Virus record (IMG/VR): IMGVR_UViG_3300028805_000002
Length of the DNA: 64,000 nucleotides
Reading direction: 5' to 3' (one strand)
Source: an uncultured virus (IMG/VR IMGVR_UViG_3300028805_000002)
Lineage: Duplodnaviria; Heunggongvirae; Uroviricota; Caudoviricetes
The notes below the pieces were generated by a model, which saw nothing but the letters and a program-made list of their open reading frames with translations, was not told where the DNA came from and did not search any database. Below, piece after piece: positions 7,267 to 63,065 of this stretch; positions within the stretch are counted from its first letter, which is position 1, and every line of letters begins with the position of its first letter. Both the position numbers and the translations under genes were made by a program.

Positions 7267-7269
7267 AAT

Positions 7270-8031: not shown

Positions 8032-8228
8032 AACTGTATGACTTTGTAGAGAAGGAACTGGAGAGATTTAGAAAGGAGTGCAACTTTACTCCAGATGAAC
8101 TCGAATATTTCAATCTTCGGGCAAAGCATTATAGCAACTTCCAAATCTCATTGAAGATGAACGTATCAGAAAGTAAAGTTTCAAAACTCGCAAAGTCAGT
8201 AAAGAACAAGATACTTAGGGTAATTTAA
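8028..8228 (+). CDS. Small stand-alone LuxR/GerE-like HTH protein
   Basis: FTPDE...SNFQISLKMNVSESKV HTH pattern. Confidence 0.6.
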   Translation: MKLYDFVEKELERFRKECNFTPDELEYFNLRAKHYSNFQISLKMNVSESKVSKLAKSVKNKILRVI

Positions 8229-45206: not shown

Positions 45207-45207
45207 T

Positions 45208-45390
45208 TTACTCTGCCTCCTTGTTTACCATACAGATGTTGATTGTCTTGCACGAATGGCACTTAATCTCTACGATACAATCATTCCTGTCGCTGTGCAT
45301 AATGGACTTACCGAGTTTGTGTCCACAACACACACATCGAATCCATTTATCTTTGCCAATACTCGTGGCATTATTTCTTCGGTTGTACAT
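45208..45390 (-). CDS. Com-like zinc-ribbon protein
   Basis: IRCVCCGHKL...EIKCHSCKTIN. Confidence 0.6.
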   Translation of the reverse strand: MYNRRNNATSIGKDKWIRCVCCGHKLGKSIMHSDRNDCIVEIKCHSCKTINICMVNKEAE

Positions 45391-46237
45391 TTGTGAACAT
45401 CTCCTTTAAAGTCTCTTTGTTATAGTTGTTGTCTATCAGAGTTGAGCAGGAGATGTATGTTGCGTTATTTCCAAACATAGCATCTGCCAGTGCTCTTATC
45501 TCCTCTTTTGAGTAGTCATACCCTAAAGCACGACCTCTTCCACTGCCAATATTTCTTGTTATTGGACTTGTGCCCTGCCAATCGAATCCGATTACTCTGA
45601 AGAACGACGGATGGGTAAGAGGATAACTCATTCTCTTTAAGTCTAACGGTCTATCGCTGGACTTAATCTTGATACACAGAATATCCGTTGTGCCCTGACC
45701 TTTGCTTGTATAGGACTGAACAGCATACAGATTAAATCTATATCCCTGCTTTTCAAGTCCGAGTATCGCACCGAGAAGTGTCTTTCCTGCTTCGATGAAC
45801 TGGTCAACCGTCTTACTACAATTTGCTGTAAGGTCATAGTACACATCAAGAACTTTTGCTTTGATAGGCTTCATCTGTGTATTGAGCATATTCTTAGGAA
45901 CTCCGCTCAGTGCGAGAGGTACAACAGGTGCAAATCCCATAATGTTGTTATCAAATGAGAACCTTGTGCCGTCTCTTGAAGGCACTTTTAACTCGGTCTT
46001 GAACGCATCAACTACAGGCTGATAACCTGACGCGAGCAAGTCAAGCGCCTCCTGATATGTCTTAACTCCGCACCAGTCTTCCTCAAGAGTCTCGTTCTTC
46101 ATATTGTAGATACTGTGTCTAACTGGTCTGGTCTTGCAGTCATTGACCATTTCGTTTACGGTGTTATAGAACTCAATCTTGGCGTCAAGAGAACGCCCTG
46201 TGCCGAGGTCAACTTTCTTTTCTTTGATGATGGACAT
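45371..46237 (-). CDS. VWA-like partner of the MoxR ATPase
   Basis: Directly downstream of the AAA gene; GFAPVVP.AL.GVP, HPSFFR motifs. Confidence 0.55.
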   Translation of the reverse strand: MSIIKEKKVDLGTGRSLDAKIEFYNTVNEMVNDCKTRPVRHSIYNMKNETLEEDWCGVKTYQEALDLLASGYQPVVDAFKTELKVPSRDGTRFSFDNNIMGFAPVVPLALSGVPKNMLNTQMKPIKAKVLDVYYDLTANCSKTVDQFIEAGKTLLGAILGLEKQGYRFNLYAVQSYTSKGQGTTDILCIKIKSSDRPLDLKRMSYPLTHPSFFRVIGFDWQGTSPITRNIGSGRGRALGYDYSKEEIRALADAMFGNNATYISCSTLIDNNYNKETLKEMFTNVQPKK

Positions 46238-46251
46238 ATCTCACATCCTCC

Positions 46252-47463
46252 TTACATCTTCTCCCAAACGTGTCTTAACGCGGTCTTGTAGTCAGAGTTA
46301 GGCAACTCATTTGTTATGAGGTTAACATCGTCCTTCTCTAAGTCCTTGACAAGACAATATCTGATGGCATCTTCCACAGACATAACATCCAGCACATTTG
46401 CGAGATTGCTGATGGCACGATAAGAAACGATGATGCCAACACCAACTTTCTTTGCGGCGGCTCTAAATGCACGGCAGAAGTCTGCGAGCATTGTACTTCC
46501 TGCGAGACTGTCCTCAATCTCCTTGCAGTAGTCAACAGGAATCGGGAGGAATCGGTCAAGGCTGGCCGCGTCTAACTGATTTCTTCCTACGTACTGATAG
46601 TCAGCGCCGTGACCTGTCGTATTGCCTGCGGCAACTACTCTGAAGTCGGGATGTGCTTCCTTATAACCGATAGGTGCCGGGAAGTCAAAATACTTGTTTG
46701 CGATTGCGGCGTTGAGAATGTTAAGCACTTCAGGAATTGACGCGTCCATTTCATCTAACATAAACAGACCGCCTTCCGTGAAGGCTTTGAAAAACTGAGT
46801 GGGCTGGTAATTACCCATAGCGTCAGTAAAACCAGTCAACTTATACTCCTGAGTTACGGCGTTGGTGAAGTAGAACTTCAAACCAAGCGCCTCAGCAACT
46901 TGTTTGCAGAGTACGTTCTTTCCTGAACCAGCAGGCCCAACTAAGAACACAGGAATATTCTTGCTGACCAAGTGAAGAACATTGTCGAACTGTGCGTGGA
47001 GAACTCCGTGAAGTTCTGCCTTTTTACCGCTGACATCGACCGTTATCTTTCTCTCAATCGGTCCGTACTCCTTGCTGATGAAGTTTCTAACTTCTTCCTG
47101 CACGTTGCCCATTATATCTTTCTCGATGTTTTCGGCCTGTGTCTGTACGATTAAGTCAGCGACAGCCTTGCCGATAATATCGAGGCTTGTTCCGAGATTT
47201 TCTTCGGAAGTCTTAAATGCGTATCGAGGAACTTCGATTGCCTCGAAACATTCCTCAAATCTGTCTGCTAACAGACCTTCTTCCAGATGTTCATCTACCC
47301 ACTTTCTAATGTGGTTCTTGACGTAGATGTAATCACCACCAATCCTTTCCAGACAGACAAACACTGTTTCCTGTGCGTCCTTGTTTGTCAGAGAAATTGC
47401 TGTGCCTGCCTGGTCATTGTAGAAGCGGATAAGCATTTTTGCGGTATCGAGATTTCTTCTCAT
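46252..47463 (-). CDS. MoxR/CbbQ/CobS-like AAA+ ATPase
   Basis: GPAGSGKN, MLDEMDAS, HPDFRVVAAGNT, LDAASLDRF. Confidence 0.88.
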   Translation of the reverse strand: MRRNLDTAKMLIRFYNDQAGTAISLTNKDAQETVFVCLERIGGDYIYVKNHIRKWVDEHLEEGLLADRFEECFEAIEVPRYAFKTSEENLGTSLDIIGKAVADLIVQTQAENIEKDIMGNVQEEVRNFISKEYGPIERKITVDVSGKKAELHGVLHAQFDNVLHLVSKNIPVFLVGPAGSGKNVLCKQVAEALGLKFYFTNAVTQEYKLTGFTDAMGNYQPTQFFKAFTEGGLFMLDEMDASIPEVLNILNAAIANKYFDFPAPIGYKEAHPDFRVVAAGNTTGHGADYQYVGRNQLDAASLDRFLPIPVDYCKEIEDSLAGSTMLADFCRAFRAAAKKVGVGIIVSYRAISNLANVLDVMSVEDAIRYCLVKDLEKDDVNLITNELPNSDYKTALRHVWEKM

Positions 47464-47523
47464 TGAATTAGTCCTCCTATGGAATCGTTATTATTTTGTT
47501 TGTTGCGCTTGCAACTCTTAATC

Positions 47524-47552
47524 ATTATACTAAACGATTGAATGGATTGCAA
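47524..47552 (-). promoter_or_regulatory. SigA-type promoter with ATCGTTTAG spacer motif
   Basis: Minus strand TTGCAA-17nt-TATAAT. Confidence 0.75.
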
Positions 47553-47632
47553 GCGTTATTTCTTGCGCCATTCAATCGTGTTGTATAGTTGTTGTATAGT
47601 TATAGTAGATTAAATGTTGCTCCGAGGAGCAA

Positions 47633-47905
47633 TCACTCAATCTCCAGTGTATCATCCTCGTCGGATGTGTCATCCTGGTCCATTGAATGAATAAGGAGCA
47701 TCCTTGTAAGGAGCAACGGAACAGGAATACCTCTCTCCTCAGAGAGTCTGTTTATCAATTCGTAGGCAAGCGCCTCGATTGCATTACCATCTCCTGCGAT
47801 GTAGAGTTTGCACTCTACCTTGTTGCTAAGTTCACCGTGAACGTAGCCAAAGCCGTCCTTGTTTCTGAACTTCTCAGAATCCTTAAGCAAATCCTTTTTT
47901 TCCAT
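47633..47905 (-). CDS. Hypothetical protein with acidic tail
   Basis: RBS AAGGAGG. Confidence 0.55.
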   Translation of the reverse strand: MEKKDLLKDSEKFRNKDGFGYVHGELSNKVECKLYIAGDGNAIEALAYELINRLSEERGIPVPLLLTRMLLIHSMDQDDTSDEDDTLEIE

Positions 47906-47958
47906 TTTAACTTCCTCCTTTGGGATAGTTTATTTGTGTCAGCGGTCGTTCCACTGTA

Positions 47959-48714
47959 TCACTTCTTAGATGTGGTCTTTCTTGTGGCCGTCTTCTTAGC
48001 GATAGGCTTCTTAGTCTTGGTCGTAGACGCAACAGGCTTCTTTGCAGATGCCTTCTTGCTTTCCTTCTTACGATACTTTCCAAGATACTTCTTGAAAGGC
48101 TCATAGTAGCCATAGTTGTTTCCAAGCGCCTTCTTGGCGATGCAAAGTGCGAGACCCTTTTCTGGGTCATACTTCTCTCCTTCACCGCACTTAACTACGG
48201 TCTTTGTATCGTCATTCCAGAATACGATTGTCGCTGGCGCATTGAAGATTACGTCCTTAATGCCGTTGGACAAGTCTTCTGGACAGTTTGATGTAGTATG
48301 GAAGGGGTCAAATCGTTCTGACAGTACCCACACACCTGCGTCGTTAAACCCTGGGCCTTTAACTTTTATTTTCTCTGCGCCATCGCCACAGGTATCGACA
48401 TCTACTACTACGCCAACCCATCCGCACTTAGTCTTACCGTATGCGTCTGCGCTCTTGTTGCCTATTACCCAATCTCCTCTTTTAAACTTTCTCATAACAG
48501 AGCCTGCCTTTCTCTTTTCCTCTTCGGTCGCTAATCTAAAATGTTCGGCTTTAACTGTGGGCTTAAATGTACCCTTTGCGTTTGTGAGTTGTATGGTATT
48601 ACCGCTGTCACTCACCCAAATAACTTCTCCAGTCCAGCCCTTTCCTGTAACCGAATAGGCTTCTTCTGCTGCCTCGGTTCCTGTAACGATGTCTCCTACC
48701 TTAAATTTGTTCAT
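47959..48714 (-). CDS. Two SH3-like repeats, VIFNAPATIVFW domain and Lys-rich tail
   Basis: FK.GD.V.G...Y..T..GW.G.V twice; DPEKGLA; histone-like K/A/T tail. Confidence 0.65.
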   Translation of the reverse strand: MNKFKVGDIVTGTEAAEEAYSVTGKGWTGEVIWVSDSGNTIQLTNAKGTFKPTVKAEHFRLATEEEKRKAGSVMRKFKRGDWVIGNKSADAYGKTKCGWVGVVVDVDTCGDGAEKIKVKGPGFNDAGVWVLSERFDPFHTTSNCPEDLSNGIKDVIFNAPATIVFWNDDTKTVVKCGEGEKYDPEKGLALCIAKKALGNNYGYYEPFKKYLGKYRKKESKKASAKKPVASTTKTKKPIAKKTATRKTTSKK

Positions 48715-49112
48715 ACTGTTTCCTCCTTGTACTTTTCATATAGGTCAGGGAACTTTCTCTTGAAGTCCTCTGTAAGCGTATCGTGTTCCATAATCCAATT
48801 GATTATTTCTTCTTCACGACTGCTGTCCTCTGTCTTCTCTACCAGAGATGCAACCACAACTCCGTGTTCAGGAATGTACGCTCTTACGCGGTCGATTGCC
48901 TGTTCTTTGCACTCGAACACAGCCTTTTCCACTCGCTTTGTTCGACACGCCTCGGCTAACTCATACATATCCTTGCCAGACGTTGTGAACTTTCCTTTGA
49001 GTTTTTCACTTGTAGCAGGAATCTCCTCGGGGTTAATCGGAATGTTGAACACTCCAAACACTGTGCCCTGCTTTCTTGCGGTGACACTCTCGTAAAACTT
49101 AACTTCTACCAT
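48711..49112 (-). CDS. Hypothetical protein
   Basis: RBS AAGGAGG before MVEVKF. Confidence 0.55.
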   Translation of the reverse strand: MVEVKFYESVTARKQGTVFGVFNIPINPEEIPATSEKLKGKFTTSGKDMYELAEACRTKRVEKAVFECKEQAIDRVRAYIPEHGVVVASLVEKTEDSSREEEIINWIMEHDTLTEDFKRKFPDLYEKYKEETV

Positions 49113-49293
49113 TTGACGTTTCCTCCTTTTTGATTTCATTTATGCTGTCTATGGTATACTTGTCTGTACCTGTAATCTTGCTCCAGTTAGCGAGCACCCA
49201 CTTCTTACTAGGCGCTCGCACAAATCTTGTGCCTACTATCTGTAATGCACCATTACTTCCGTGATATGCCACGGCGTATCTCTTTCTTGCCAT
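49099..49293 (-). CDS. Hypothetical protein
   Basis: RBS AAGGAGG. Confidence 0.55.
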   Translation of the reverse strand: MARKRYAVAYHGSNGALQIVGTRFVRAPSKKWVLANWSKITGTDKYTIDSINEIKKEETSNGRS

Positions 49294-49459
49294 TTGTTTT
49301 CCTCCTTATCTTCTCGTATGCCCACAAGTACCAGTCTATAAATCGCATTAGCGGGTACTTCCGATAGAAAGTCTTTAGATAGACCTTTATCGCTTTCTTG
49401 TCCAGATTTTCATAATCAAGTCCAACATCGGCGTTGCACTCTTTTCTTGTGGCTTTCAT
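49253..49459 (-). CDS. Hypothetical protein (exact start uncertain)
   Basis: AAGGAGGTG RBS-like element at the start region. Confidence 0.4.
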   Translation of the reverse strand: MKATRKECNADVGLDYENLDKKAIKVYLKTFYRKYPLMRFIDWYLWAYEKIRRKTNGKKEIRRGISRK

Positions 49460-49468
49460 TACACCTCC

Positions 49469-50314
49469 TTAGTATTTTGCGGCTTCCTCAAATGTGAGGA
49501 AGAAGTGTATTCCAGATGCACATTCGTGCCATCTGTTTTCCTCAAATGGATGTTGAGGCACTACTGTGTCTCCTATTTTGTATTCAAACAGTGAGTTGTA
49601 GTGGCTTACTGCGTGGTAGTTTTTCGCGTCTTCTTTCGAGATTTTGTCACCTGATTTTCGATAGAAGCCTTTTACTTTTGCCGCGCTTGCACGACACTTT
49701 CTAGATGTGCTGGAAGTTCTCTTGGCACTGGCAGGAATGTATAACTCTACAACAATCTCCCTGCCTGTCAATTTATCCACACACTGTTTATACGCGGTGA
49801 AGCCTCCTTTTTCAGGACACATAATCGGCATACCGTTTCTAATAGTTTCCGTTTTGAGTGCCTCGTCTAAGTCTGCGCGACACATTTTGGCAAATCCGAA
49901 ATCGGTCTGGTCAAGGGTTGAATCCCCAAAATAGGCGTCAGATACATCTGCCTCAGTGAACTTTGCATACGTTAGGTCGCAATTAGTGAATCTGGAACGT
50001 GTTGCTGTTGTACGGCAAAAATACACATTTCGTAGGTTGCAATCTACGAATCTTGCTCCGTCTAGGTGAGCCCAGTCTATTGAGGCAAACGTAAATGTGC
50101 AATTCCTAAATAACGCATCTTCCATAGAGACGTGGCTTAGGTTACAATGAGAAAAGTTTACATTAGTGAAAACGATGCCTCGAATATCCAAACCGCGAAG
50201 GTCCAGTCCACTCGCATCTACGAAATCTATTCCAGACAGGCGAGCACTTCCTATTCTTACGCGCAGAAGTTCCGCGCAAAGTTTTTTTCTTGATACCTTT
50301 GGTAGACGTCCCAT
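49469..50314 (-). CDS. Pentapeptide-repeat protein with C-terminal DUF5758-like domain
   Basis: A.F..C.L pentapeptide repeats; CPEKGGFTAYK...RKCRAS...ECASGIHFF. Confidence 0.8.
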   Translation of the reverse strand: MGRLPKVSRKKLCAELLRVRIGSARLSGIDFVDASGLDLRGLDIRGIVFTNVNFSHCNLSHVSMEDALFRNCTFTFASIDWAHLDGARFVDCNLRNVYFCRTTATRSRFTNCDLTYAKFTEADVSDAYFGDSTLDQTDFGFAKMCRADLDEALKTETIRNGMPIMCPEKGGFTAYKQCVDKLTGREIVVELYIPASAKRTSSTSRKCRASAAKVKGFYRKSGDKISKEDAKNYHAVSHYNSLFEYKIGDTVVPQHPFEENRWHECASGIHFFLTFEEAAKY

Positions 50315-50327
50315 TTTGTGTCTCCTT

Positions 50328-50576
50328 TCATTTCAGTTCCTCGGGCATTACTACATCAAGTCCACGGTTAGCACGTACCATACGGAGTAACACTCTTCCG
50401 TATATATCGTCCTTTCCTGTGAGTATGCGGTTGCACCAGTATTGTGCTCGGTGGTCTATCCACATACCATCGAGTATCAGGCTGTACTTGTCGTGGTAGA
50501 GTTTGTTTATCCTAGCGCAATACTTCTTATAACAGCGCCATCGGCGTTCCATTCGTTTAACAGATTCCTCTGTCAT
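50328..50576 (-). CDS. Basic hypothetical protein
   Basis: RBS GAGGAGG. Confidence 0.5.
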   Translation of the reverse strand: MTEESVKRMERRWRCYKKYCARINKLYHDKYSLILDGMWIDHRAQYWCNRILTGKDDIYGRVLLRMVRANRGLDVVMPEELK

Positions 50577-50578
50577 AT

Positions 50579-50872
50579 TTATCCCTCCTCTCTATTACCT
50601 ACTGTTGATACAGTCTTCGTGTCACACCATATTCCGCCTGACTTGCTTGCGCGTCTCATACAACGAAGGAAACAGTCCATCAGTCCTACGAGTGTGTCGT
50701 TGTCGGTATATCCCATCTCGTCGATTTCCTCGAGAGTTGTTTCCGATGTAATGTCGCCATCTGCAACACCACACATCAGCCAACCCATAAAGATGTCCTC
50801 GTCATTGATACATCTTGCAATGGTCTCCATAGCCTTTACCAGTTCTGCCCTTCTCTTCGTTTTACTGTCCAT
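50579..50872 (-). CDS. Hypothetical protein
   Basis: INDEDIF..WLMCGVADGD motif. Confidence 0.6.
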   Translation of the reverse strand: MDSKTKRRAELVKAMETIARCINDEDIFMGWLMCGVADGDITSETTLEEIDEMGYTDNDTLVGLMDCFLRCMRRASKSGGIWCDTKTVSTVGNREEG

Positions 50873-50972
50873 ATCTATTACTCCTCTCTTTTTAATTCCC
50901 AGACAATCCAGAGTTGAACTATCTTAAATACAGCGAGCACTACACTCGCCATAAACGTCATATCAAGTGGGC

Positions 50973-51290
50973 TCATACAATTTCATCCTCCTTAAGCCAT
51001 TCTGGTATGTGAACTGCATCCTTGTAGTCAAACACGCGGATAATGGATTTCAGCGTGTTACAGTCCTCGGTCAGTTTCCTGTTAAGTGCTACCTTAACAT
51101 AGTTGAGTGGTTCCTCTTCCATTGAGAGAAGCGCCTCTTCCATCTGCTTATACAGATTACAGAATATGCCTCTGTCATCGAAGAACAGGTTGTCCGAGTT
51201 GCGTCCTTCTCTATTGTACTTATTGAAGTATCTGCCATAGAGCAATCTCAGGCAGTCTAAGTGGATTTCTCTCCAAGAGGGTTTTGGCAT
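50973..51290 (-). CDS. Hypothetical protein
   Basis: RBS AAGGAGGTGA. Confidence 0.6.
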   Translation of the reverse strand: MPKPSWREIHLDCLRLLYGRYFNKYNREGRNSDNLFFDDRGIFCNLYKQMEEALLSMEEEPLNYVKVALNRKLTEDCNTLKSIIRVFDYKDAVHIPEWLKEDEIV

Positions 51291-51302
51291 AGTATCACCT
51301 CC

Positions 51303-51575
51303 TTAACAACAAACGAGTGCTTCCCACTCGTGATTGGCTTCCACTTCCTTATAGACTTCATCGAACAGGTCGTAGAAGTCTGCCCAGAACATCGTCTCAG
51401 GACAGATGCGATTGCACGCCTTGTCTCTGTACTCCTGATAGATGTCCAATCTTTGAAGTGTCGTGAGGACGTTTCCCTCGTTCAGTTTATCTACCTCTGC
51501 CAGCAATATTCTTGTCCAGCACTTCTCTGCAACCTTGCGGATGCGCTCCTTGATTTCCTCTTTAGTGATTGTCAT
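51303..51575 (-). CDS. Hypothetical protein
   Basis: RBS AGGAGG before MTITKEE. Confidence 0.55.
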   Translation of the reverse strand: MTITKEEIKERIRKVAEKCWTRILLAEVDKLNEGNVLTTLQRLDIYQEYRDKACNRICPETMFWADFYDLFDEVYKEVEANHEWEALVCC

Positions 51576-51637
51576 ATTAGGTTTCCTCCTGTGTATTTTC
51601 TGTATTCTTTCCAAGCCAAACTTCTTCAAACAGATAT

Positions 51638-51967
51638 TCAAACTCCTCTAACATTTTGTGCCTCCTTAGCAACGGTCTTCCTAAAGAGACAGTCTACATA
51701 ACAGCCTCTTTCCACGTCTTTGTATACGTCGATTCCCTTAACTTCAGGAAAAGCCTCGAACACAAGCGGCAACGCGCGTTCCAGTGACTTGAGTGAGGAG
51801 AAACTGTGCCAGGTGTACCAGTCATCAGTTGCCCACTCACAGAAGCCATCAGGCATTTCCCTATCGAACTTGTGCAGGATGTCCCACATTTCATCACTGG
51901 TTCTCTTGCACGGGTCTATCTGAAACATCATAGACCACGACACCTTCTTAATCTTACGCTTGCTCAT
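51638..51967 (-). CDS. Hypothetical protein
   Basis: RBS AAGGAGG before MSKRK. Confidence 0.55.
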   Translation of the reverse strand: MSKRKIKKVSWSMMFQIDPCKRTSDEMWDILHKFDREMPDGFCEWATDDWYTWHSFSSLKSLERALPLVFEAFPEVKGIDVYKDVERGCYVDCLFRKTVAKEAQNVRGV

Positions 51968-51977
51968 ACTTCCCTCC

Positions 51978-52253
51978 TTATGCCTGTGCGAGTATTTCGC
52001 CATCTTCATCTACCATAGCGATAAGACCTTCAAACACTTCCGTGTTCTCGATGTCACCTACCGCTACCCACTCACATCCTTCCTCAGGGTCTGCGTCATA
52101 TCCGACCATACTTCCGATGGTGTTTATGGCTTCCTGATACTGAAAGTACCTGTGCTCACACGCTTCTTCCTCAGGAAGATGTGCGAGTTTGTAAATTCTG
52201 TCAGGCACTTCCACTTCCTTAACTACGCTGACGATTACTCTAACCTTTGCCAT
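51978..52253 (-). CDS. Acidic hypothetical protein
   Basis: RBS AAGGAGG. Confidence 0.6.
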   Translation of the reverse strand: MAKVRVIVSVVKEVEVPDRIYKLAHLPEEEACEHRYFQYQEAINTIGSMVGYDADPEEGCEWVAVGDIENTEVFEGLIAMVDEDGEILAQA

Positions 52254-52769
52254 ACTAATTTCCTCCTTTGGGATATTCTGTCTATACTGACAAGGTAGTG
52301 TTTTGTATGTTCCCGATTGTTTACTTGTGGTGTTCCGCTCTGTATTGTCTAAGTTCCTTTAGTGTACATCTCTGAAGCCAGAGCCGCTTCTGCTGTTCCT
52401 TGATGGCGCGTTCTATCTTACCTCTTCCCATATATGCACTCCCTGGTAAGATACTGGCGAGTGCCCGGGACAATCTTCAGACAGGTCTGAAGTCCGTTTC
52501 TCTTAATGAGTTCCCGATACGGAATCTTGTATGTGATTGTGGATTTTGCTGTGTTGGTCATAGTGTAATTTCCTCCTAGGGGATATTTACTTCCCTATTC
52601 CTATCTTCCCATTTATATGTTCCCATACAAAACACTCCCTTGCCTGTATAGGCTGAGGGAGTGCTGAGTTGTGCGCTTTAAAGTGCCCAGTTGCGTGTCG
52701 CGTGTTTATGCGGGTTCACGCGTTTCCGTTCTGTCTACCGTATGGTGTCTTCCCGTATGAGGCTATGCC

Positions 52770-53273
52770 TCAGAATCCTAAGACCTCTGCAACACCGTCC
52801 CAGTTCTCTACCTTGAGGGCATATTCATTTGCCCAACCCTCGTGATGTTCCCAGTCGGAGCGTGTAGCCTTGAGTTCCTTGCCAGGGAAAACCCAGGCGC
52901 CGTCCTTGAGCGGTCTGATACGAGCGTAGGCTGTCTTGTCTCCCTCTACCTTAGAGATGAGGATGTGTCCCTTCGCGTTTGTTCTGAAGATGTACTTGTC
53001 CTTCGGGATGTCTGCTAAGAAGGCGTCGGCAGTGGGGTGCTTGCGTTCCTTCTTCTCTGCGGGTGCTTCCGGTGTCGGCTCTGCAGGTGTCTGTTCTGCG
53101 GGAATCTCTTCCTGAGTCTGTTCTGCGAGTGCCTTCTGTTCTGTCTGATATGCTTCAAAGATAGGCATAAAGTCAACTTTGGGCATCTGTTCTGTCTTGC
53201 CGTCAACTATGCGGGCAAAGTATGTCTTGTGATTTGTCTTGTATTCTGTGCCGTTGTATGTAAACTGTGTCAT
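52770..53273 (-). CDS. Early hypothetical protein with Pro/Glu linker
   Basis: RBS AGGAGGA before MTQFTY (the ORF-track start at 53345 is probably too long). Confidence 0.65.
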   Translation of the reverse strand: MTQFTYNGTEYKTNHKTYFARIVDGKTEQMPKVDFMPIFEAYQTEQKALAEQTQEEIPAEQTPAEPTPEAPAEKKERKHPTADAFLADIPKDKYIFRTNAKGHILISKVEGDKTAYARIRPLKDGAWVFPGKELKATRSDWEHHEGWANEYALKVENWDGVAEVLGF

Positions 53274-53355
53274 AATAAAATCCTCCTGTGATTTTGTAAA
53301 ATTGATTTTTTGATGTGGTGCAACTGAACACTTTAACGCGCACAACTCAGTGGCG

Positions 53356-53764
53356 CACGTTTTCGAGTGCTTTACTTTTGCGCATTGTTATATGCGCTTA
53401 GAAGTACAGGTCATCGTGTAAATCTTCGTGTAATTTGCGCGCGCTTGTAATTACGATTGTGTCGTTATACTCATCATTGACGCAAGTACGATAGAATAAG
53501 AAGAAATCATCAAATTCGGCACAATGTGAATTGAGTTCTGTAATACAGTCAAATATTATCTTTTCGATATTTTCAAATTCGCTGTAAAAGTCTTTATTGA
53601 TACAGCACAAAAAAGCATTACAATTTATCGCTTCATCAAATTGTGCTAAATTGTATTTTTCAAGAATTGAATAGTAGAGTTCATAATTTTTTGTCATTGT
53701 CTTTTATCTCACTTTCATTAGATTTTTTGAGACAATGCGCAAAAACAAAACACTCGAAAACGTG
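53356..53764 (-). repeat. 33-bp inverted repeat pair (53356-53388 / 53732-53764) enclosing ORF 53398-53697
   Basis: 30/33 identity; the three differences are G-U pairs in the minus-strand transcript. Confidence 0.9.
53398..53697 (-). CDS. First early gene: 99-aa acidic protein with no Gly, Pro or Trp (candidate anti-defence DNA mimic)
   Basis: 20 D/E versus 7 K/R; RBS AAAGTGAG; first ORF of the minus-strand arm. Confidence 0.6.
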   Translation of the reverse strand: MTKNYELYYSILEKYNLAQFDEAINCNAFLCCINKDFYSEFENIEKIIFDCITELNSHCAEFDDFFLFYRTCVNDEYNDTIVITSARKLHEDLHDDLYF

Positions 53765-54700
53765 ATATTTTGCGCGATATTTTGCACTTTGCATACATTT
53801 TGCGCTTAGATAAAATCAATTATCTAAGAATAGAGCGCGCACTTATAAAATACAGATAGACTTTCAAATTTACTCTAACAAACAATAGTGTTTGAGTGCA
53901 TTTCACAGCGTAGTAATGAACAAGACTTCAATACAACTATGCAACAAGTATATTGTCGTTCGCGTTTACTAATAATTCGCGCATAGTGTTTTTCTACTAT
54001 TCGCACTATTTCACAACAGTGCTATTTTATGACTGTTTATAGCAATAAACTCAAAAATCAACTAATTTTATAGTTAGTATTCACATACTAATAACTATTA
54101 TGCAATTCGTTTATCTAGTGAATTATAACAGCACTCGATTATAATAATCACGTACTATATTATTACACTTTACTATCAACACAGCGCAAACGATTAAATA
54201 GTTAAGTCTTGTTTTAGAATGATTATATTGTCGAACTAAAGTGTTAAATAATGCACATTACAAGTTACTTTGAGTGTAAGACAATACACTACACAAAATA
54301 CTTTTATTAGTTTTTTCTTTTGTGTTTTACGTTTTATCACGTTCTAAAACAGTGTCACTAATTACTTAAAAGAAACACAGTGTATTTTTTCAAGTATCAT
54401 TCACTAAACGCGTAAAAGACTAGTGATTTTTATCTGTATTTATTTGTCAAGTTACAGTGTTATTACTTAAAGTATTCGCAACAACTTTTTAGCACTCATT
54501 ACGCGTTAACTCGATATACTCGAATAATACGTTATACTTCAGCGCAAGAACTATAAACAACTAGTGATTATAGAGAACGTATGACTAACTTGTGTATGCT
54601 TGCTAGTTCGTTCTTTTGTTATGCATAGAGTAACGCTTATTAAACGATATTTCAATACAACTTTTGACTTATTTGTTCGATAACGAACAAAAACACGTCA
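53520..54700. other. GG/CC-free tract
   Basis: No GG or CC seen between the GG at 53518-19 and the GG at 54701-02. Confidence 0.9.
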
Positions 54701-54809
54701 GGTTGTTCGATAAATACATTAAAACAATAATAATTTATCATTATTCGATAAACGCTATATAATATGCTTATTATATATAATAAATACGCGTATGCGCATG
54801 GGGTAATAT

Positions 54810-54828
54810 GATAATGATTATCATTTTC
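54810..54828. promoter_or_regulatory. Fur-box-like operator
   Basis: GATAATGATTATCATTTTC versus consensus GATAATGATWATCATTATC (18/19). Confidence 0.55.
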
Positions 54829-55217
54829 AAATTCATACATTAGTCTAGTTAGTATCTTTATATAACAGATTATTAGTGTATAGCGCTGTAACGCTCATAT
54901 TTAACGTATAACGCGCTCTAGCACTTATACACAAGAATTTATATTCACAGCGCACGAGCGCGTCACAGATCAAATTTAAAATTTAAGTTAGCACGCATAT
55001 ACAAGCGCATACACACGGGCATATTTATACGCACGCGCGCGCGCGCACGTACACGGGATTCTCGAACTCTTACGTCGAACTTTGTAGACAAGTATGCGCG
55101 GTGCTTGAAAATAGAGGGGATTGGGCATAAAAGTAATCCTAGAGGTGGGTAGGTCGAGTGTGGTAGTAAGGTCGTTCAAGAACGACAGGAAAGGCGTGGA
55201 AAATTAAAAGTAAAATT

Positions 55218-55236
55218 GAGAATGATTATCATTTTC
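55218..55236. promoter_or_regulatory. Fur-box-like operator
   Basis: GAGAATGATTATCATTTTC (17/19). Confidence 0.5.
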
Positions 55237-55415
55237 AGTTTCAAGGTCGAGGTTTGTAGACAAAGTCTTGACTAATAGTAGGAGTATGTGTTATTTTGTA
55301 TATGTAATTGGAGAGATACAATGTTATCGAGGGTCTCTTAGTAAGTCGCCGCAGGGCGCAGGAACGACGGGTGATTAACAGTATATCTTTAGTTATAGAA
55401 GGATAATATAAATAT

Positions 55416-55676
55416 ATGGAAAATGAAACACTAGCAACTGAAATGTTGCACGAACTGAAATCGAATGGCCGAAGGTGGTTTATAGCATTTCTAGTCGTTC
55501 TAATGCTTTGGTTTGCTACTATCGGTGCGTTTCTTTGGTATATCTCTTTGCCCGTGGACGAAACTTCGGTGGAACAGTATGCCGAAGGCAACGACAATTC
55601 TTTTGTTGGTATAGGTGATATGAATGGCGGCGTATCAGAAAGTTACAAGACGCAGGAGAGCACTTCGCAGTCGTAA
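55416..55676 (+). CDS. Single-TM hypothetical protein
   Basis: LATEMLHELK...WFIAFLVVLMLWFATIGAFLWY. Confidence 0.6.
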   Translation: MENETLATEMLHELKSNGRRWFIAFLVVLMLWFATIGAFLWYISLPVDETSVEQYAEGNDNSFVGIGDMNGGVSESYKTQESTSQS

Positions 55677-55701
55677 GTCAACCCGTAGAAGGAGACACTA
55701 A
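55624..55701 (+). CDS. 25-aa Arg-rich peptide (not in ORF track)
   Basis: MAAYQKVTRRRRALRSRKSTRRRRH; AGGTGA 5 nt upstream; stop 2 nt before the next gene. Confidence 0.45.
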   Translation: MAAYQKVTRRRRALRSRKSTRRRRH

Positions 55702-55703
55702 TT

Positions 55704-56021
55704 ATGGCAGCGGCTGGTCAAACACGTACTATCAAAAAGTTACAACAGGCTCTCCAAATGGAAGGAGAGTTAATTCTTATCTCTACTTCTCAATTCTTTA
55801 GTTTGGAAAAGCAGACCACTGTAACAAGATACCACGTTAAGAAACAAGTTCAATCAGGTGAGAAGTATAAGTCTTCTCAGGTTGAACTTTTTTCTTCTTG
55901 TTCACAAATCCAGATTACTCTCTTTTTAAGAGATTATTATTACGAGATTAAAGGATATGAGGTGCCGCAGGATAATCCTTATTGGTTAGCGGCAAAGAAG
56001 AAATATTTTGAGGAGCATTAA
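55704..56021 (+). CDS. Hypothetical protein upstream of terminase
   Basis: IKKLQQAL...TSQFFS...ELFSSCSQIQI..FLRD; RBS AAGGAG. Confidence 0.65.
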   Translation: MAAAGQTRTIKKLQQALQMEGELILISTSQFFSLEKQTTVTRYHVKKQVQSGEKYKSSQVELFSSCSQIQITLFLRDYYYEIKGYEVPQDNPYWLAAKKKYFEEH

Positions 56022-56023
56022 GT

Positions 56024-56542
56024 ATGGCTGAAAAGAAGAAGAAACCGGGTTATGGTGGAAATCCTAAAGGGTCTGAATATAAACTCTCTATCAGAGAGCA
56101 AAAGTTCGTGTCTCTCTATTTAGAGTACGGTGACCCGAAGAAAGCAGTTGTTGAGGCAAAGTTCAATACTACTGCACCTAGTCAGTACGCTAAGAAACTC
56201 TTGGCTAAGCCGAAAATTCAAAGAGAGATTGCATCACAAATGGAACTCTTTAGAAATGAGTGTATCGCCAGTTCGCAGGAGATTATGAACTTCTACACTC
56301 TCACAATGCGTGGAGAAGTTAAAGACCAGTTCGGTCTTGACGCTACTCTTTCTGACAGACTTAAGGCGGCTGATGCGCTCGCTAAGAGACAGATTGACGC
56401 CAGAGCACTTGCAGAGAAGGCGAGTGACAATGAGTTTAAGGTTACACTTACTTGGGGTGCACCTGCTACTCCTGAGCCTAAACCTGAAGAAGATTTAGAT
56501 GACACCGCTGATGAAGAGGAAGACATAGATGCCGAACAGTAA
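56024..56542 (+). CDS. terS: Terminase small subunit
   Basis: LSIREQKFV..YL, IAS.QEI..FYT..MRGEVKDQFGLD...DRLKAA. Confidence 0.85.
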   Translation: MAEKKKKPGYGGNPKGSEYKLSIREQKFVSLYLEYGDPKKAVVEAKFNTTAPSQYAKKLLAKPKIQREIASQMELFRNECIASSQEIMNFYTLTMRGEVKDQFGLDATLSDRLKAADALAKRQIDARALAEKASDNEFKVTLTWGAPATPEPKPEEDLDDTADEEEDIDAEQ

Positions 56543-56924
56543 ACACATCATTATAGACGATAAAGAATATAAGGTGCCTATCGTTGAGTTACAGCGAAAG
56601 GGCGATATTCTTGACTTGACTGCGAACAGAACAGAGGATGGTGTTCTTCACAGAGATGTTATAGGTACATACTATAACTACACGCTTACAATCGGAATTA
56701 TTAACGACCCAGAGTTGTATGAAGAGTTGTGGAACGTCTTAACTGCACCCGTGGCAAGTCACTGGATAGAGTTGCCACACGACCACGTGAGATTTGAAGG
56801 CTACTTCGGTAGTTGTAAAGATAATATTCAGATGATAACAGAAGATGGCTATAAGGCAAAAGGACTGTCTTTCAATCTTGTTGCCACTAGAGCCGCAAGG
56901 ACGGCAGTAAATGGCGGTAATTAA
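56529..56924 (+). CDS. Structural protein resembling distal-tail-type proteins
   Basis: ANRTEDGVLHRDVIGTYYNYTL...GLSFNLVA pattern. Confidence 0.45.
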   Translation: MPNSKHIIIDDKEYKVPIVELQRKGDILDLTANRTEDGVLHRDVIGTYYNYTLTIGIINDPELYEELWNVLTAPVASHWIELPHDHVRFEGYFGSCKDNIQMITEDGYKAKGLSFNLVATRAARTAVNGGN

Positions 56925-58170
56925 CGTAAACTTACAAGAATGTATCATACCTATGTATAAAGAAGTGCTCCAAGATGTCTTGGAGCATAAACATACTCAC
57001 TTTATTTTTCCTGGCGGAAGAGGTAGTTGTAAATCTTCTTTTGTAGGCATAGCAATACCTCTTGTACTTGTGAATAATCCGACAGTACACGCAGCCTGCT
57101 TCAGAAAAGTAGGAAATACTATTCAAAACTCTATCAGAGCACAAATTGAGTGGGGAATTTACAAATTAGGTATGCAGGACCTGTTTAATATACCTGCCTC
57201 ATACGCAAATCCGATAACTTTTAAGCCTACTGGACAAAAAATCTACTTCTTAGGTCTCGATAAACCAGCAAAAATCAAGTCAATTAAGCCAAAATTCGGC
57301 TACATAGGCATTACTTGGTTCGAGGAGTTGGACCAATTCGCTGGCGAGAATGAAATTCGTACTGTAACACAGTCTACAATGCGTGGTGGCGATAAATATT
57401 GGGACTTTAGAACATTCAATCCGCCGATTTCAAAGAATAATTGGGCAAATATGTATGCAGATAAGGCCGCTATTTACTCTAAAAGTAGTCTTGTTACCCG
57501 AAATACGTATCTTTCAGTACCGCCAGAGTGGCTTGGACCACAGTTTTTTGAAGAAGCGGAAGAACTTAAAGTACTTAATCCACGCGCTTATGAGCACGAA
57601 TATCTTGGAGTTGCTACAGGAACGGGCGGAGATGTCTTTGAAAACGCCTGTGAACTCGATATGTCAGGTATGATTGACAACTTCGACCATATCTATAACG
57701 GAATTGACTGGGGTTTTGCAAGAGACCCGTTCAGATTTGTTCGTATGCACTTTGACGCAAGAAAACTCGACCTATATATCTTTGACGAGTTTTCTACCTA
57801 TAAGACACGTAACGAGGACACTTTCCACAGACTATATGATGAAGAGTGCAAAATATCCCGAGACGAATTGGTAACAGCCGATAGTGCGGAAGAAAAATCT
57901 GTTGCAGACTTTAGGGCGTATGGTGCGTTTATCAGACCTGCTAAGAAAGGTCCTGACAGTGTTCGTTATGGAATTAAGTGGTTACAGGGACTTAGACACA
58001 TCTATATAGACAAAAAACGCTGTCCTGAGACGTTTTATGAGTTCATAAACTATGAATATGAGCGAGATAAGGACGGAAACTTCATTAGTGCGTACCCCGA
58101 TGCAGACAATCATAGTATCGACGCGGTACGCTATGCACTGGAAAACTACTGTAACCGCAGAGGAACATAA
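56911..58170 (+). CDS. terL: Terminase large subunit (PBSX family)
   Basis: GGRGSCKS, WFEE, TFNPP, GIDWG, ADSAE, NHSIDAVRYA. Confidence 0.95.
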   Translation: MAVINVNLQECIIPMYKEVLQDVLEHKHTHFIFPGGRGSCKSSFVGIAIPLVLVNNPTVHAACFRKVGNTIQNSIRAQIEWGIYKLGMQDLFNIPASYANPITFKPTGQKIYFLGLDKPAKIKSIKPKFGYIGITWFEELDQFAGENEIRTVTQSTMRGGDKYWDFRTFNPPISKNNWANMYADKAAIYSKSSLVTRNTYLSVPPEWLGPQFFEEAEELKVLNPRAYEHEYLGVATGTGGDVFENACELDMSGMIDNFDHIYNGIDWGFARDPFRFVRMHFDARKLDLYIFDEFSTYKTRNEDTFHRLYDEECKISRDELVTADSAEEKSVADFRAYGAFIRPAKKGPDSVRYGIKWLQGLRHIYIDKKRCPETFYEFINYEYERDKDGNFISAYPDADNHSIDAVRYALENYCNRRGT

Positions 58171-58220
58171 TTTAGGCTTTATCCATTTACTTCTATCTAC
58201 AAAAGTTATAGAATTATGAT

Positions 58221-58838
58221 ATGAGCGAGATGTTAAACCTGCTAACTATGGCGTTTGACGGTGTTGGTGAGTACAACATACCGCAAATTAAGCCAGTTAC
58301 TGAACTCTATGTCAAAGATTGGATAGGGTTTAACTTCGTAGCGTCCACAAGAAAGCAACGAGAAATCACAGGCGTACATTTTTACATAGACGATTATCAA
58401 TTTGAGCGTGTTTGGAACTTTCCTTGGCGCTTTTCCAAGACTTTTAACGAGTTCGGAGCGATAATGACGCCCGATTTCTCAACTTATCTTGATTTTCCTA
58501 AAGCAGTTCGCATATTTAACCACTATCGTAAGCATTGGTGTGGCGCTTATTGGCAAGAAATGGGCGCAACAGTCATTCCTACGATAGAGTGGGGCACTGA
58601 AGAGGACTATTCTTGGTGTTTTGATGGTGAACCAGAAGGAGGAATAGTGGCTGTTTCTAATGTAGGCATTATGCGAAGTAAAGAACTGCGTGAAAATTAT
58701 ATGAAAGGCTACAAAGAGATGCTTACAAGACTTCAACCAAAGGAAGTTTTAATGTTTGGGCATATCTTTGATGATTATCCTGGTCCTGTTCATTACATTC
58801 ACTATCAGCAAGCAAAGGGTGAACAAGGAGAAGAATAA
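58221..58838 (+). CDS. DUF4417-family protein
   Basis: GVHFYIDDYQFERVWN, TPDFSTY, WQ..G..VIPTI.W, CFDG. Confidence 0.8.
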   Translation: MSEMLNLLTMAFDGVGEYNIPQIKPVTELYVKDWIGFNFVASTRKQREITGVHFYIDDYQFERVWNFPWRFSKTFNEFGAIMTPDFSTYLDFPKAVRIFNHYRKHWCGAYWQEMGATVIPTIEWGTEEDYSWCFDGEPEGGIVAVSNVGIMRSKELRENYMKGYKEMLTRLQPKEVLMFGHIFDDYPGPVHYIHYQQAKGEQGEE

Positions 58839-59173
58839 TGGCGAACAAGGCAAGATACTACGGATTGGCAAAAACAGAGCAAAAAGATATGAAAAAGAGA
58901 GCGTCAGAGACCCCGTTTATTAACGTCGAGGAACTTACGCCGTGGACTGTTTACTCTGTTTTAGCACTTTATCCAACAATAGATGCGTCCTCGTCTCAGA
59001 CAGCAACACGCAGAATGAAGGAAGAACTGATAAAAAACGGGTTTAATGGTAAAATAGAAGTGAATGGTAGCAGTATTTCAGACGGCACAAACACTTATGT
59101 TTTAACTAAAACCAGTTCTAATGGCATAATGATAGTAAAGGAAACACACGAAGAAAAGAGACGTAAGAGGTAA
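58838..59173 (+). CDS. Hypothetical protein
   Basis: Coupled ORF before the portal. Confidence 0.55.
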   Translation: MANKARYYGLAKTEQKDMKKRASETPFINVEELTPWTVYSVLALYPTIDASSSQTATRRMKEELIKNGFNGKIEVNGSSISDGTNTYVLTKTSSNGIMIVKETHEEKRRKR

Positions 59174-59176
59174 AAT

Positions 59177-60955
59177 ATGAGCGTATGGTCAACTATAACA
59201 GAAAAGGTAAAGGGGATTATAACTAAAATGATTGGTAGACAAGACATTGAAGAAGTATTGAGAGTAAAACCCGCAATTTCTAACGAAATGGTGCAGGCCA
59301 TTGAGTTATGGTCGGCTATGTATGAGGGAAGAGCGCCGTGGCTCAAAGAGCCAACAAAAGATGACCCGTCAGCAGTTAAATCGTTAGGATTACCTCAACT
59401 TATTGCGAGTGAAAAAGCGAGAACGGCGCTTATTGAGTTCGAGAGTGAAATTACAACACCTATTCTCGATAGCGAGCCTGCTACTCCCAACTATCTGAAC
59501 AAGGATAATGTAGGAACAGACGGTCAACCCGAGCCGATGGTATCTACACCTCTTGTTATGAAGGATATTCCTAAGGGTAGTACAAAAAGAGCACAGTTTC
59601 TTAATAAACAGTATGTAAAACTCAAAGAGGCACTTCGTATTCAACTTGAGTACGGTATTGCAAAGGGTGGACTTGTTGTTAAGCCCTACATAATTAAGCA
59701 TAACAATCAGACGCTTCATCAAGAAACAGATATGATGACAGGTGAAAAGAGTCAAGACGAGAGCGACACTGGTTATGAGTTCGAGTTTGACTACATTCAG
59801 GCAAACGAGTTCTATCCTCTCGCATTTGACGGAAGCGGAAAGATGACTGAAGCCGCCTTTATTCAGCGAAAGGTAGATAAGGACATTATTTACAGCCGTC
59901 TTGAATATCACAAGTTGGAAGATAACACTGTTACAGTTATAAACAAGGCGTTTAAGGCAAACTCTCGTTCTATGAAGGCGGACTATCTTGGAGAGGAAAT
60001 TCCGCTTACAGATGTTCCAGAGTGGGCGATGCTCTCAGCAGAAACGAAGATTGCCAATGTAAATCGTTTGCTTTTTGCGTACTTTAAGATGCCTGAAGCA
60101 AACACGATTGATACACACAGTCCTCTTGGTGTAAGTGGCTTTGATAAAGTTAAGAGCCTTATAGCGGAAGCCGATAGACAGTATTCAAGACTTCTTTGGG
60201 AGTTCGAGGGTGGCGAACTTGCTATTGATATTGATAGAAACGCGCTGACTTGGCTTGAAGACCCGAAGAATCCTGAAAGCGGTCACTCTGTTATGGGAAC
60301 ATTACAGAACAGGCTTTATCGTAAAGTTGACCTTAATGAAGACAATACGTATGAAGTTTTCTCTCCTACACTTAGAGACCAGTCGATTATAAACGGACTT
60401 AACTGTATCTTAATGAGAATAGAAGACGGCGCTGGAATTTCTCGTGGCACTCTTTCTGACGTTGTAAGCGAGGCTAAGACCGCGACAGAGTTAAGAATGT
60501 TGCGTATTAGAAGTTATGAGACCAACGCACACATACAGAAAGCCACAGAGAAGATGCTTAGAGACGTTATATATGTAATGAATGTCTACTGTGACCTTTA
60601 CAAAATTACAGAAGAGGGCGAGTATGAGGTATCATTTGAGTGGGATGACAGTATTTTGAGCGATAGCGATACGGAACTTACAAAGAGAATGATACTTATG
60701 CAGAATGGTCTTGCTGGTAAGGTTGAAACTCGTATGTGGTACTTTGGCGAAACAGAGCGTCAGGCAAGAGAGGCACTTATCAAAATTCAGCAAGAAAATC
60801 TTGAGGCTGTTCAGCAGAATGTTGCCGAAATGGAAATACTCGGACAAACACCAGAAAGTCAAAAGAACGAAAGTCCAAAAGCACCCAACAATAACAACAA
60901 CAATAACAGCAACAATAATTTTAAGAGTGGTGACAATCAATATAGCAACAAATGA
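59177..60955 (+). CDS. Portal protein (A118/SPP1-like)
   Basis: GGLVVKPY, RLEYH, SPLGVS, YSRLLWEFEGG, FEWDDS; follows terminase. Confidence 0.9.
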   Translation: MSVWSTITEKVKGIITKMIGRQDIEEVLRVKPAISNEMVQAIELWSAMYEGRAPWLKEPTKDDPSAVKSLGLPQLIASEKARTALIEFESEITTPILDSEPATPNYLNKDNVGTDGQPEPMVSTPLVMKDIPKGSTKRAQFLNKQYVKLKEALRIQLEYGIAKGGLVVKPYIIKHNNQTLHQETDMMTGEKSQDESDTGYEFEFDYIQANEFYPLAFDGSGKMTEAAFIQRKVDKDIIYSRLEYHKLEDNTVTVINKAFKANSRSMKADYLGEEIPLTDVPEWAMLSAETKIANVNRLLFAYFKMPEANTIDTHSPLGVSGFDKVKSLIAEADRQYSRLLWEFEGGELAIDIDRNALTWLEDPKNPESGHSVMGTLQNRLYRKVDLNEDNTYEVFSPTLRDQSIINGLNCILMRIEDGAGISRGTLSDVVSEAKTATELRMLRIRSYETNAHIQKATEKMLRDVIYVMNVYCDLYKITEEGEYEVSFEWDDSILSDSDTELTKRMILMQNGLAGKVETRMWYFGETERQAREALIKIQQENLEAVQQNVAEMEILGQTPESQKNESPKAPNNNNNNNSNNNFKSGDNQYSNK

Positions 60956-62139: not shown

Positions 62140-62141
62140 TG

Positions 62142-62202
62142 TTGACATTTGCGCCTATATATTATAATATGGAAGTATGAAATTGAGAATTGTTCTCAAT
62201 TT
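62142..62202 (+). promoter_or_regulatory. Promoter for scaffold/capsid genes followed by a Fur-like palindrome
   Basis: TTGACA 62142-47, TATAAT 62163-68; AAATTGAGAA-ttg-TTCTCAATTT 62180-62202. Confidence 0.6.
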
Positions 62203-62349
62203 TTATGGCTCCTAACGATAATACAGGCAATACGCCTTTATTATATTGTCTCGTTCCAGACATTTAAACAGGAACACAATCAACGCAGACCGCGACTGCG
62301 ACATTATAAATAAAGCGGATATAAAAGATTGTTTTAGGAGGAATTTTTC

Positions 62350-63033: not shown

Positions 63034-63065
63034 AAACAAGACATTGAATTAAGGAGGAAACAAAA

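Follow-up and report, generated by a model that had tools for sequence, protein, structure and literature searches.

In the window, by which we mean the whole 64,000-nucleotide stretch of phage DNA that we analyzed, a zone of 1,851 bp upstream of the terminase genes (53287-55137) contains no CC on the + strand, where 51.3 are expected; that is, there is no GG on the - strand, which codes for the early genes. The zone takes in the first early gene (53398-53697, - strand), which encodes a 99-aa protein, plus about 1.4 kb of non-coding DNA upstream, and this ORF without Gly, Pro or Trp is the tip of a larger nucleotide feature. The void pattern itself is solid. The first-pass annotation had proposed that the amino-acid alphabet of the gene is constrained by DNA motif avoidance, and this is strongly supported: the void spans 1.85 kb including non-coding DNA, GG is gone from synonymous positions and codon junctions, and the first genes of two relatives, without significant similarity to this one, follow the same GG rule. 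The interpretation offered there as a whole, an anti-defense protein under such a constraint, is partly supported.

The window covers most of the genome of a tailed phage (of the contigs that carry the ORF, the longest is 72,413 bp). Replication genes occupy the + strand as far as about 39 kb, small genes form a divergent arm on the - strand from 53.7 kb down to 39 kb, and from 56 kb the + strand carries the terminase, an SPP1-like portal and head genes. The small and large terminase subunits (56024-58170, + strand; Terminase_2 and Terminase_3/3C) fix the place of the void zone beside the packaging genes, and we take a Terminase_3-type terminase with an SPP1-like portal to suggest headful packaging. 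All runs that contained at least half of the stretch were from sheep-gut samples, namely two DNA runs, which may be the source of the stretch, and two RNA runs, which represent a single other sample; 13 runs with a small word share carry no weight as habitat evidence. A DNA-run contig crosses the void zone unbroken, in one piece.

The 99-aa product was confirmed to contain no Gly, no Pro and no Trp, and to be acidic (D+E 20, K+R 7) and rich in aromatic residues (18%), as had been described. The chance of finding none of the three residues in 99 aa is 2e-5 at window-wide frequencies and 5e-6 at early-arm frequencies. The ribosome-binding site is free of GG, also as described; it reads AAAGTGAG (53708-53715, - strand, 10 nt before the ATG), most of the remaining early-arm genes have AGGAG(G), and the identical 8-mer precedes the first genes of two related phages, L039 and L005. 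The missing Gly and Trp and the odd RBS are both explained by a zone that is kept free of coding-strand GG. The second early gene (52770-53273, - strand, 167 aa) lies outside the void and is back to normal, as the annotation had stated, with nine Gly, four Trp, 11 Pro and an AGGAGG RBS. Homolog searches found only three relatives of the first protein, 65-75% identical and with 20-23 D/E; a 1.84-billion library added one weak match, in a 1,753-aa protein, and none of the IMG/VR loci encodes the ORF. The idea that homologs also lack the three residues held for Gly and Trp, absent from all three, but not for Pro, of which two of the three have one each. In one sample, RNA contigs extend over the ORF.

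The absolute rule is the absence of GG from the early coding strand, and CC is nearly absent. On the + strand of the zone GG occurs 18 times against 43.9 expected, with 13 of the 18 at 54800 or beyond, and word counts show a core of 1,183 bp (53519-54700) with neither GG nor CC on either strand; the longest GG/CC-free gap outside the zone is 176 bp. Because Gly is encoded by GGN and Trp by TGG, both are banned when coding-strand GG is lost, and Pro is only thinned. The annotation had linked the missing residues to GG and CC alike; this stands for GG, which is 0 on the coding strand of the ORF, but not for CC, which occurs there twice. In the first genes of the three phages with a full void (the window, L005 and L039), GG from Arg codons and codon junctions is 0, against 2.7, 3.8 and 9.5 expected given the proteins, and since synonymous GG is missing as well, the constraint acts on nucleic acid. 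CC within the three coding regions numbers 2, 2 and 7 against 5.4, 6.1 and 12.4 expected. The void is strand-biased in all three phages, CC on the + strand being 0 in each and GG on the + strand 4, 15 and 3 (expected 30, 43 and 42).

A general equilibrium of non-coding DNA is ruled out as the cause of the void, as other non-coding stretches are not depleted of GG: in most of nine other mostly non-coding stretches GG is near expectation (36 against 38.9 in the longest). Low GC is ruled out as well, with a zone GC of 32-36% and CG and GC enriched 1.7-fold. Avoidance of a MazF-type UACAU word was also considered; ACAT is scarce on each strand, and no clear strand rule emerges.

The right edge of the void is marked by a conserved motif, TTTGTAGA(C/T)AA(A)GTA (55081-55094, + strand; second copy at 55253), which may be a promoter, terminase or end signal. 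A motif scan over viral contigs returned three already-known contigs and two chance matches. Two copies of a palindrome-like element, AATGATTATCATTTTCA (54809-54835 and 55217-55243), which we take to resemble a Fur box, flank this edge, and upstream of the first rightward gene there is a non-coding element, TATCGAGGG...GAACGACGGGTGATTAAC (55325-55385), that is conserved in several relatives and is a possible leader RNA or late promoter.

Eleven relatives were compared around this anchor motif, and two of them, L005 and L039, have a full void, with a + strand devoid of CC over 1,810 and 1,950 bp, where 63 and 76 are expected. L006 and L016 have only short AT-rich patches poor in GG/CC, and in the anchor-motif region of L072, L007, L009, L047, L049, L042 and L014 there is no void; L047 and L049 are near-identical and L042 contributed only 1 kb. 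The window, L005 and L039 are mutual nearest rows in a terminase-region tree that has no starred clade, and we therefore counted a single origin: the comparison suggests that the void arose probably once. The middle of the three voids, about 1.2 kb, does not align, so that the void property has been maintained during sequence turnover. The right edge falls within -23 to +53 bp of the anchor motif in the three phages, the distance from motif to left edge is 1797, 1820 and 1972 bp, and in all three the void stops at the RBS of the second gene or at the end of stem 1 (described below). The start of L003 (1-265), 265 nt free of GG/CC at 22% GC and at the matching position, is possibly a fourth void, too short to count.

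The first genes of the three void phages show no significant mutual similarity; they encode acidic proteins of 99 aa in the window and 105 aa in L039 and a non-acidic one of 132 aa in L005. Nevertheless, all nine proteins of the three families lack Gly and Trp, with 0-3 Pro. An hhalign comparison did not establish homology between the window and L039 first genes (probability 1-3%, P 0.016-0.039), and a similar C-terminal hairpin leaves a distant kinship open. The L005 protein has weak DUF5655/DUF1801-like structure neighbors with TM below 0.5. In L005, the GG remaining at 859-2240 is mostly inside a recurring (A)CGGAT word that is also found in the L005 stems, and this word is possibly a binding motif kept despite the purge. 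In L007, of a sister clade, GGA/TCC is 0 against 16.9 expected over 1,013 bp (7060-8072), a stretch picked after seeing it, and RBSs of early genes are written GGGG-type rather than GGAG; GGA is a possible second avoided word in that clade.

A search of Pfam, NCBIfam, PHROGs (best E 0.012-0.016) and PDB sequences (best E 0.95) gave no significant match for the first protein. An AlphaFold model built from four sequences predicts a small alpha/beta domain (pLDDT 78.5, pTM 0.74), for which Foldseek returned no match in PDB or BFVD at E<=0.001 and the ESM Atlas none that was significant; Ocr, Arn and Acr folds were absent among the fold-search rows listed. The best VIA-wide neighbor, a HAD cap-like fold (Z 6.0, rmsd 4.2, 85 aligned), is not a significant match. 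A homodimer through the strand at residues 65-71 was predicted with a score of 0.44 against 0.01 for the best control, just over a mark that 20 of the 30 solved pairs and one of the 23 single chains attain; contact agreement between runs was at least 94% and pLDDT at least 81. Ocr and Arn are dimers and this predicted homodimer is compatible with a DNA mimic, but dimers are common in general.

That the first protein is a DNA mimic like Ocr, Arn or an Acr, as the annotation had it, is nevertheless unproven: it has no sequence or fold match to a known mimic, and the L005 first protein is not acidic (20 D/E, 25 K/R). The acidity of the first gene is also not exceptional, as an ordinary neighbor, the ORF at 51978-52253, exceeds it (net charge per residue -0.165 vs. 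-0.131). A candidate anti-defense role is plausible from the position of the gene, its rapid turnover and the ending of the zone with it. For genes 1 and 2, Pfam and PHROG named no family (an Aca helix-turn-helix regulator was looked for), and for the 47-aa ORF at 52418-52561, where an adjacent Aca regulator was looked for, NCBIfam and PHROG named none. The second early gene of the window and early genes of L039 (6817-7371) and L072 (6937-7338) encode Pro/Glu/Ala-rich linkers and small beta-rich domains without a family match.

An inverted repeat of 25-34 bp encloses each of the first three early genes in its loop, and the repeats nearly abut. On the - strand, the upstream arm of stem 1 (53732-53764) pairs over 33 bp with the downstream arm (53356-53388), which closes the loop around gene 1; its three mismatches are all G.U on the coding strand and it folds with a z of -4.0. 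Stem 2 (53320-53350 with 52664-52694, 31 bp) encloses gene 2, and stem 3 (52624-52656 with 52277-52309, 33 bp) encloses the 47-aa ORF. Arm sequences vary between cassettes and between the window, L005 and L039. Two stems were also found in L006 and four gene-sized ones in L072; L072 thus has stems without a void, indicating that stems and void are separable features. Among the L072 stems there is also a perfect 25-bp inverted repeat (5853-5968) with a loop of only 66 nt. In 11 stems of 25-34 bp from four phages we counted 36 mismatches; G.U pairs account for 15 of them on the coding strand and for 7 on the other strand, the remaining 14 being G.U on neither.

Contigs of the RNA runs match this layout: X4 contig 53353-53728 in cassette 1, 52686-53317 and 52690-53311 in cassette 2 and 52314-52625 in cassette 3, with 53774-54367 and 53407-54606 further upstream. 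Most of their ends fall at or in stem arms, whereas the DNA run is one piece there, and one RNA contig traverses the upstream arm of stem 1. Adapter letters are present at both ends of 52686-53317 and at the 53353 end of 53353-53728. These contigs give neither strand, level nor true ends and come from one sample, and the ends at stems fit both RNase III cleavage and reverse-transcriptase stops. RNase III acts on double-stranded stems of two helical turns or more, and the stems are at least this long on the transcript strand. A long non-coding leader of about 850 nt (53765-54606, - strand) is also present in RNA-library contigs. The leader region 53765-54620 folds better than shuffled sequences (z -4.2), most 250-nt windows do not, and 54890-55115 folds with a z of -3.6 on the minus strand vs. 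-0.4 on the plus strand. No RNA contigs cover 54712-55180, a hole that proves nothing, and 52000-55500 has no Rfam match.

As to its cause, the void most likely hides the earliest region from a host defense until gene 1 is expressed, our best guess being a CRISPR system with a GG/CC PAM; among the explanations we considered this one leads, but we put it forward tentatively. The void zone would be the earliest-transcribed and probably early-entering DNA, purged of the two-base target of a host defense, so that gene 1 could be expressed before the body of the genome is recognized. The target would be a PAM, either NGG of Cas9 or CCN/CC of type I-B/I-F, and gene 1 would encode a swappable anti-CRISPR or other anti-defense protein. 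Repeated escape would strip PAMs from a spacer-acquisition hot spot, the ending of the void with gene 1 would mean that its product protects the remaining genome, and the flanking stems would let every early mRNA be processed on its own, as a unit with protected ends. We prefer a CRISPR PAM because it is a two-base DNA word that is read with an orientation bias relative to transcription. Spacers are acquired preferentially from the first-injected end. Type II-A systems acquire spacers from free DNA ends, according to the available part of one report (PMC10415147). In the portion available of another, Cas9 guides pairing with the template strand give better protection, and natural type II spacers favor the template-annealing strand (10.1101/300962); for type I-B, the accessible text describes PAMs that include CCN and a favored coding strand (PMC8482600). 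Given these preferences of Cas9 and type I-B, CC on the + strand would be lost first, as observed, and the avoided word, GG/CC with zero CC on the + strand, is that of a known PAM with its strand preference.

Several observations support a PAM-driven void: it is kept in L005 and L039 although about 1.2 kb cannot be aligned, its statistics and strand bias point this way and other non-coding stretches are not depleted of GG, its left edge sits at a gene or stem boundary in three of three phages, and dissimilar first genes all dispense with Gly and Trp. The presence of the region in RNA-library contigs of one sample and the predicted homodimer also agree with it. Cas9 was found in 15 of 151 genomes of the family in which L072 was binned (the bin is not the host), and one of 178 type II-A spacers from 13 loci of that family matches the phage family with 5 of 30 mismatches and the nine 3' bases intact. 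The spacer is from genome G087, and its site in a DUF4417 gene (58386-58415), conserved in the window, L003, L006 and L039, is a weak host lead. However, this match is a marginal one with a GG-free 3' flank, AACTTTCC, and the unaligned Cas9 C-termini from those loci show no obvious SpCas9-type Arg-x-Arg PAM motif, whose position we take to be near the C-terminus. Of the short matches from a spacer search of 44001-64000 against 401 genomes, we checked three, and none of these lay in an array. It also speaks against PAM avoidance that the GG tolerated in L005 is almost all GGA, which NGG would still read, that likely headful packaging leaves "first injected" unestablished, that neither sequence nor fold searches matched an Acr, Ocr or Arn, that L005 has a non-acidic first gene, and that the three void phages probably have one origin, with a full void in only two of the 11 other relatives. 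We consider it possible, with considerable doubt, that a fixed-length landing zone, PAM-free or else proof against a GG nuclease, overrides both the genetic code and the Shine-Dalgarno sequence, with genes recruited into the first slot rewritten without Gly and Trp and early genes arranged as stem-enclosed RNA cassettes.

In T7 and T3, whose left end carries gene 0.3 (Ocr), and in the first-step-transfer region of T5, the early end is poor in targets and an inhibitor comes first. The likeness would consist of an early region beside a genome end, target-poor and with a small acidic first gene, and of putative RNase III-type processing of early RNA; for the window, the position seen is beside terS, with a DNA contig continuous through the zone. 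Unlike those phages, which lost sites of 4-8 bp, a dinucleotide was removed here at the cost of two amino acids and the Shine-Dalgarno core, the first protein has no sequence or fold likeness to T7 Ocr, and the stems surround entire genes rather than separating one gene from the next. Anti-CRISPRs of the AcrIIA2/A4 type are acidic PAM mimics, and anti-CRISPRs in general are likewise small, often acidic, early and swapped as unrelated families at one locus, but no Acr or Aca match was found, and we know of no PAM-free zone with an Acr locus inside it. T4 Arn is a dimeric DNA mimic against McrBC-type enzymes; it shares with the first protein a length of about 100 aa, acidity, alpha/beta structure and, as modeled, a dimer (here through the beta-strand at residues 65-71), but it is absent among the fold-search rows listed. 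Leading regions of plasmids are the first DNA to enter, enriched in anti-defense genes and partly depleted of restriction motifs, as the accessible part of the source reports (10.1101/2025.04.03.647016). The depletion described there is a partial loss of 4-8-bp palindromes in single-stranded conjugative transfer, whereas here a dinucleotide is completely lost on one strand of a tailed phage. Thus a target-poor early end with the inhibitor first is already known from T7, T5 and plasmid leading regions. Our literature search, which was incomplete and had most subscription journals outside it, turned up no account of gene-enclosing stems or of a zone whose lack of a dinucleotide dictates a protein alphabet.

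A purge of restriction sites as in T7 and T5 is an unlikely but serious alternative, in which the zone would have lost CC/GG-containing sites (CCGG, GGCC, CCWGG, GGWCC or asymmetric type IIG/III sites) that remain in the genome body, and gene 1 would be an Ocr/Arn-like inhibitor. The phage genome is under heavy pressure from restriction, with no AGCT (291 expected), one GATC and two CATG sites in the whole window, and CCGG (12) and GGCC (20) survive in the genome; the zone also lacks GCNGC, GANTC, TCNGA and CGNCG, and the predicted dimer is compatible. But sites of 4-6 bp need far less than the loss of a whole dinucleotide, the zone retains or is enriched in GCGC (21), CGCG (12) and TCGA (10), and palindromic sites predict no strand bias. 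Across the whole window GCAGC and GANTC are strongly reduced, and the set of purged palindromes varies among relatives. The strand bias would be explained if a ribonuclease or RNA-binding factor, of host or phage, acts at GG in RNA, with CC lost secondarily for want of a GG partner in structured RNA and gene 1 being antitoxin-like. We regard this as quite unlikely, although only the coding strand obeys the rule without exception, the RBS was rebuilt without GG, the zone is largely in RNA contigs and the leader and 54890-55115 fold well, and L007 of the sister clade lacks coding-strand GGA (TCC on the + strand 0 against 12.8) and has GGGG-type RBSs. Against it, CC is also reduced within the coding regions, most 250-nt windows fold no better than shuffles and 54712-55180 has no RNA contig; to our knowledge no GG-specific defense RNase exists. 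RNA-polymerase pausing and R-loop formation follow GG-linked rules, and removal of coding-strand GG could therefore drop pauses and R-loop seeds for faster transcription-driven entry, or could suit a terminal repeat or packaging signal. The near-constant distance from motif to left edge, the strand bias and the long transcribed leader would fit, but the effect of a single site should not be strong enough to keep out Gly and Trp, the GG-rich gene 2 has RNA contigs at least as deep, and L072 shares the stem architecture with a GC-rich and GG-rich leader, so that we think this improbable. Neutral local mutation bias, such as CC deamination near a DNA end, could be imagined for a zone that is mostly non-coding and fast-evolving. 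It is very improbable given zero CC on the + strand over 1.8 kb at such a GC content, edges that fall sharply at gene boundaries, the absence of Gly and Trp from conserved proteins, a conserved substitute RBS, and other non-coding stretches with normal GG.

The window also carries a CmoA-like gene next to a C5-cytosine transferase gene (21547-23260, + strand), a possible carboxymethyl-cytosine system, and this pair is a less likely cause of the void. The CmoA-like gene matches TIGR00740 (E 1e-45; its 156 bits fall short of the 193 cut-off) and the transferase PF00145, with a TPVC motif and a motif X of YIRCSGVP, in which Ser is aligned to the HaeIII Asn and an Arg stands two residues earlier; a single-sequence model of the transferase (pLDDT 34) was too poor for use. 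Both genes are present in six of six related loci, which have at least three different recognition regions, and there is no CmoY-like ligase beside the pair. Synechococcus phage S-B43 encodes a CmoA/CmoX/CmoY carboxymethylcytosine system, in which, in the part of the report available, cmoA likewise adjoins a C5-methyltransferase homolog with the motif X Asn replaced (PMC12783734). As described there, that system has SPPC and CmoY, whereas the window has TPVC, an Arg off the aligned position and no CmoY-like ligase (PMC12783734). In place of this pair, G001 and G014 have a glycosyltransferase module of the TAGT type adjoining the polymerase; Pfam identifies TAGT in G001, and the genes of G014 are similar. 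The module does not match the genes of the window, and its presence where the cmo genes would be makes this a swappable DNA-modification slot. The void could then be an avoidance of the phage's own CmoA/CmoX-type carboxymethylation, if this occurs at CC; the first DNA would then carry no modification, so that host RNA polymerase could read it and modification-dependent restriction would miss it. Such a link would be helped by the nearest solved relative of the transferase, M.HaeIII, by the two-base target, GC, that the accessible text gives for the characterized CmoX (PMC12783734), by the lack of a void in G001 and G014, and by low codon-junction CC in the window (0.57) and in L020 (0.64; similar recognition region). 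Codon-junction CC is also depleted in G007 and G009. The link is not supported, however, and we give it little probability: G007, the complete G011 and G010 have both genes and no 2-4-mer void beside the terminase, although their recognition regions differ, and the void phages L039 and L005 show no codon-junction CC depletion (0.94 and 1.05).

Taken together, the void is an unusually clean case in which selection at the level of nucleic acid reshapes both a protein alphabet and a translation signal. It also gives a rule for scanning genomes: a short-word void before terS, with a first gene without Gly and Trp, points to inhibitors and to the word of a host defense. If PAM avoidance is the cause, the phage would escape CRISPR by an earliest region that cannot be targeted, followed by inhibition, a route we did not meet in the literature searched. 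If the landing-zone reading is true, the avoided word would read out the specificity of the host defense, GG here and GGA in the sister lineage, and first-slot genes would be a source of new defense inhibitors, possibly against an undescribed GG-reading system. The gene-enclosing stems represent a separate mode of early mRNA handling in this gut phage family.
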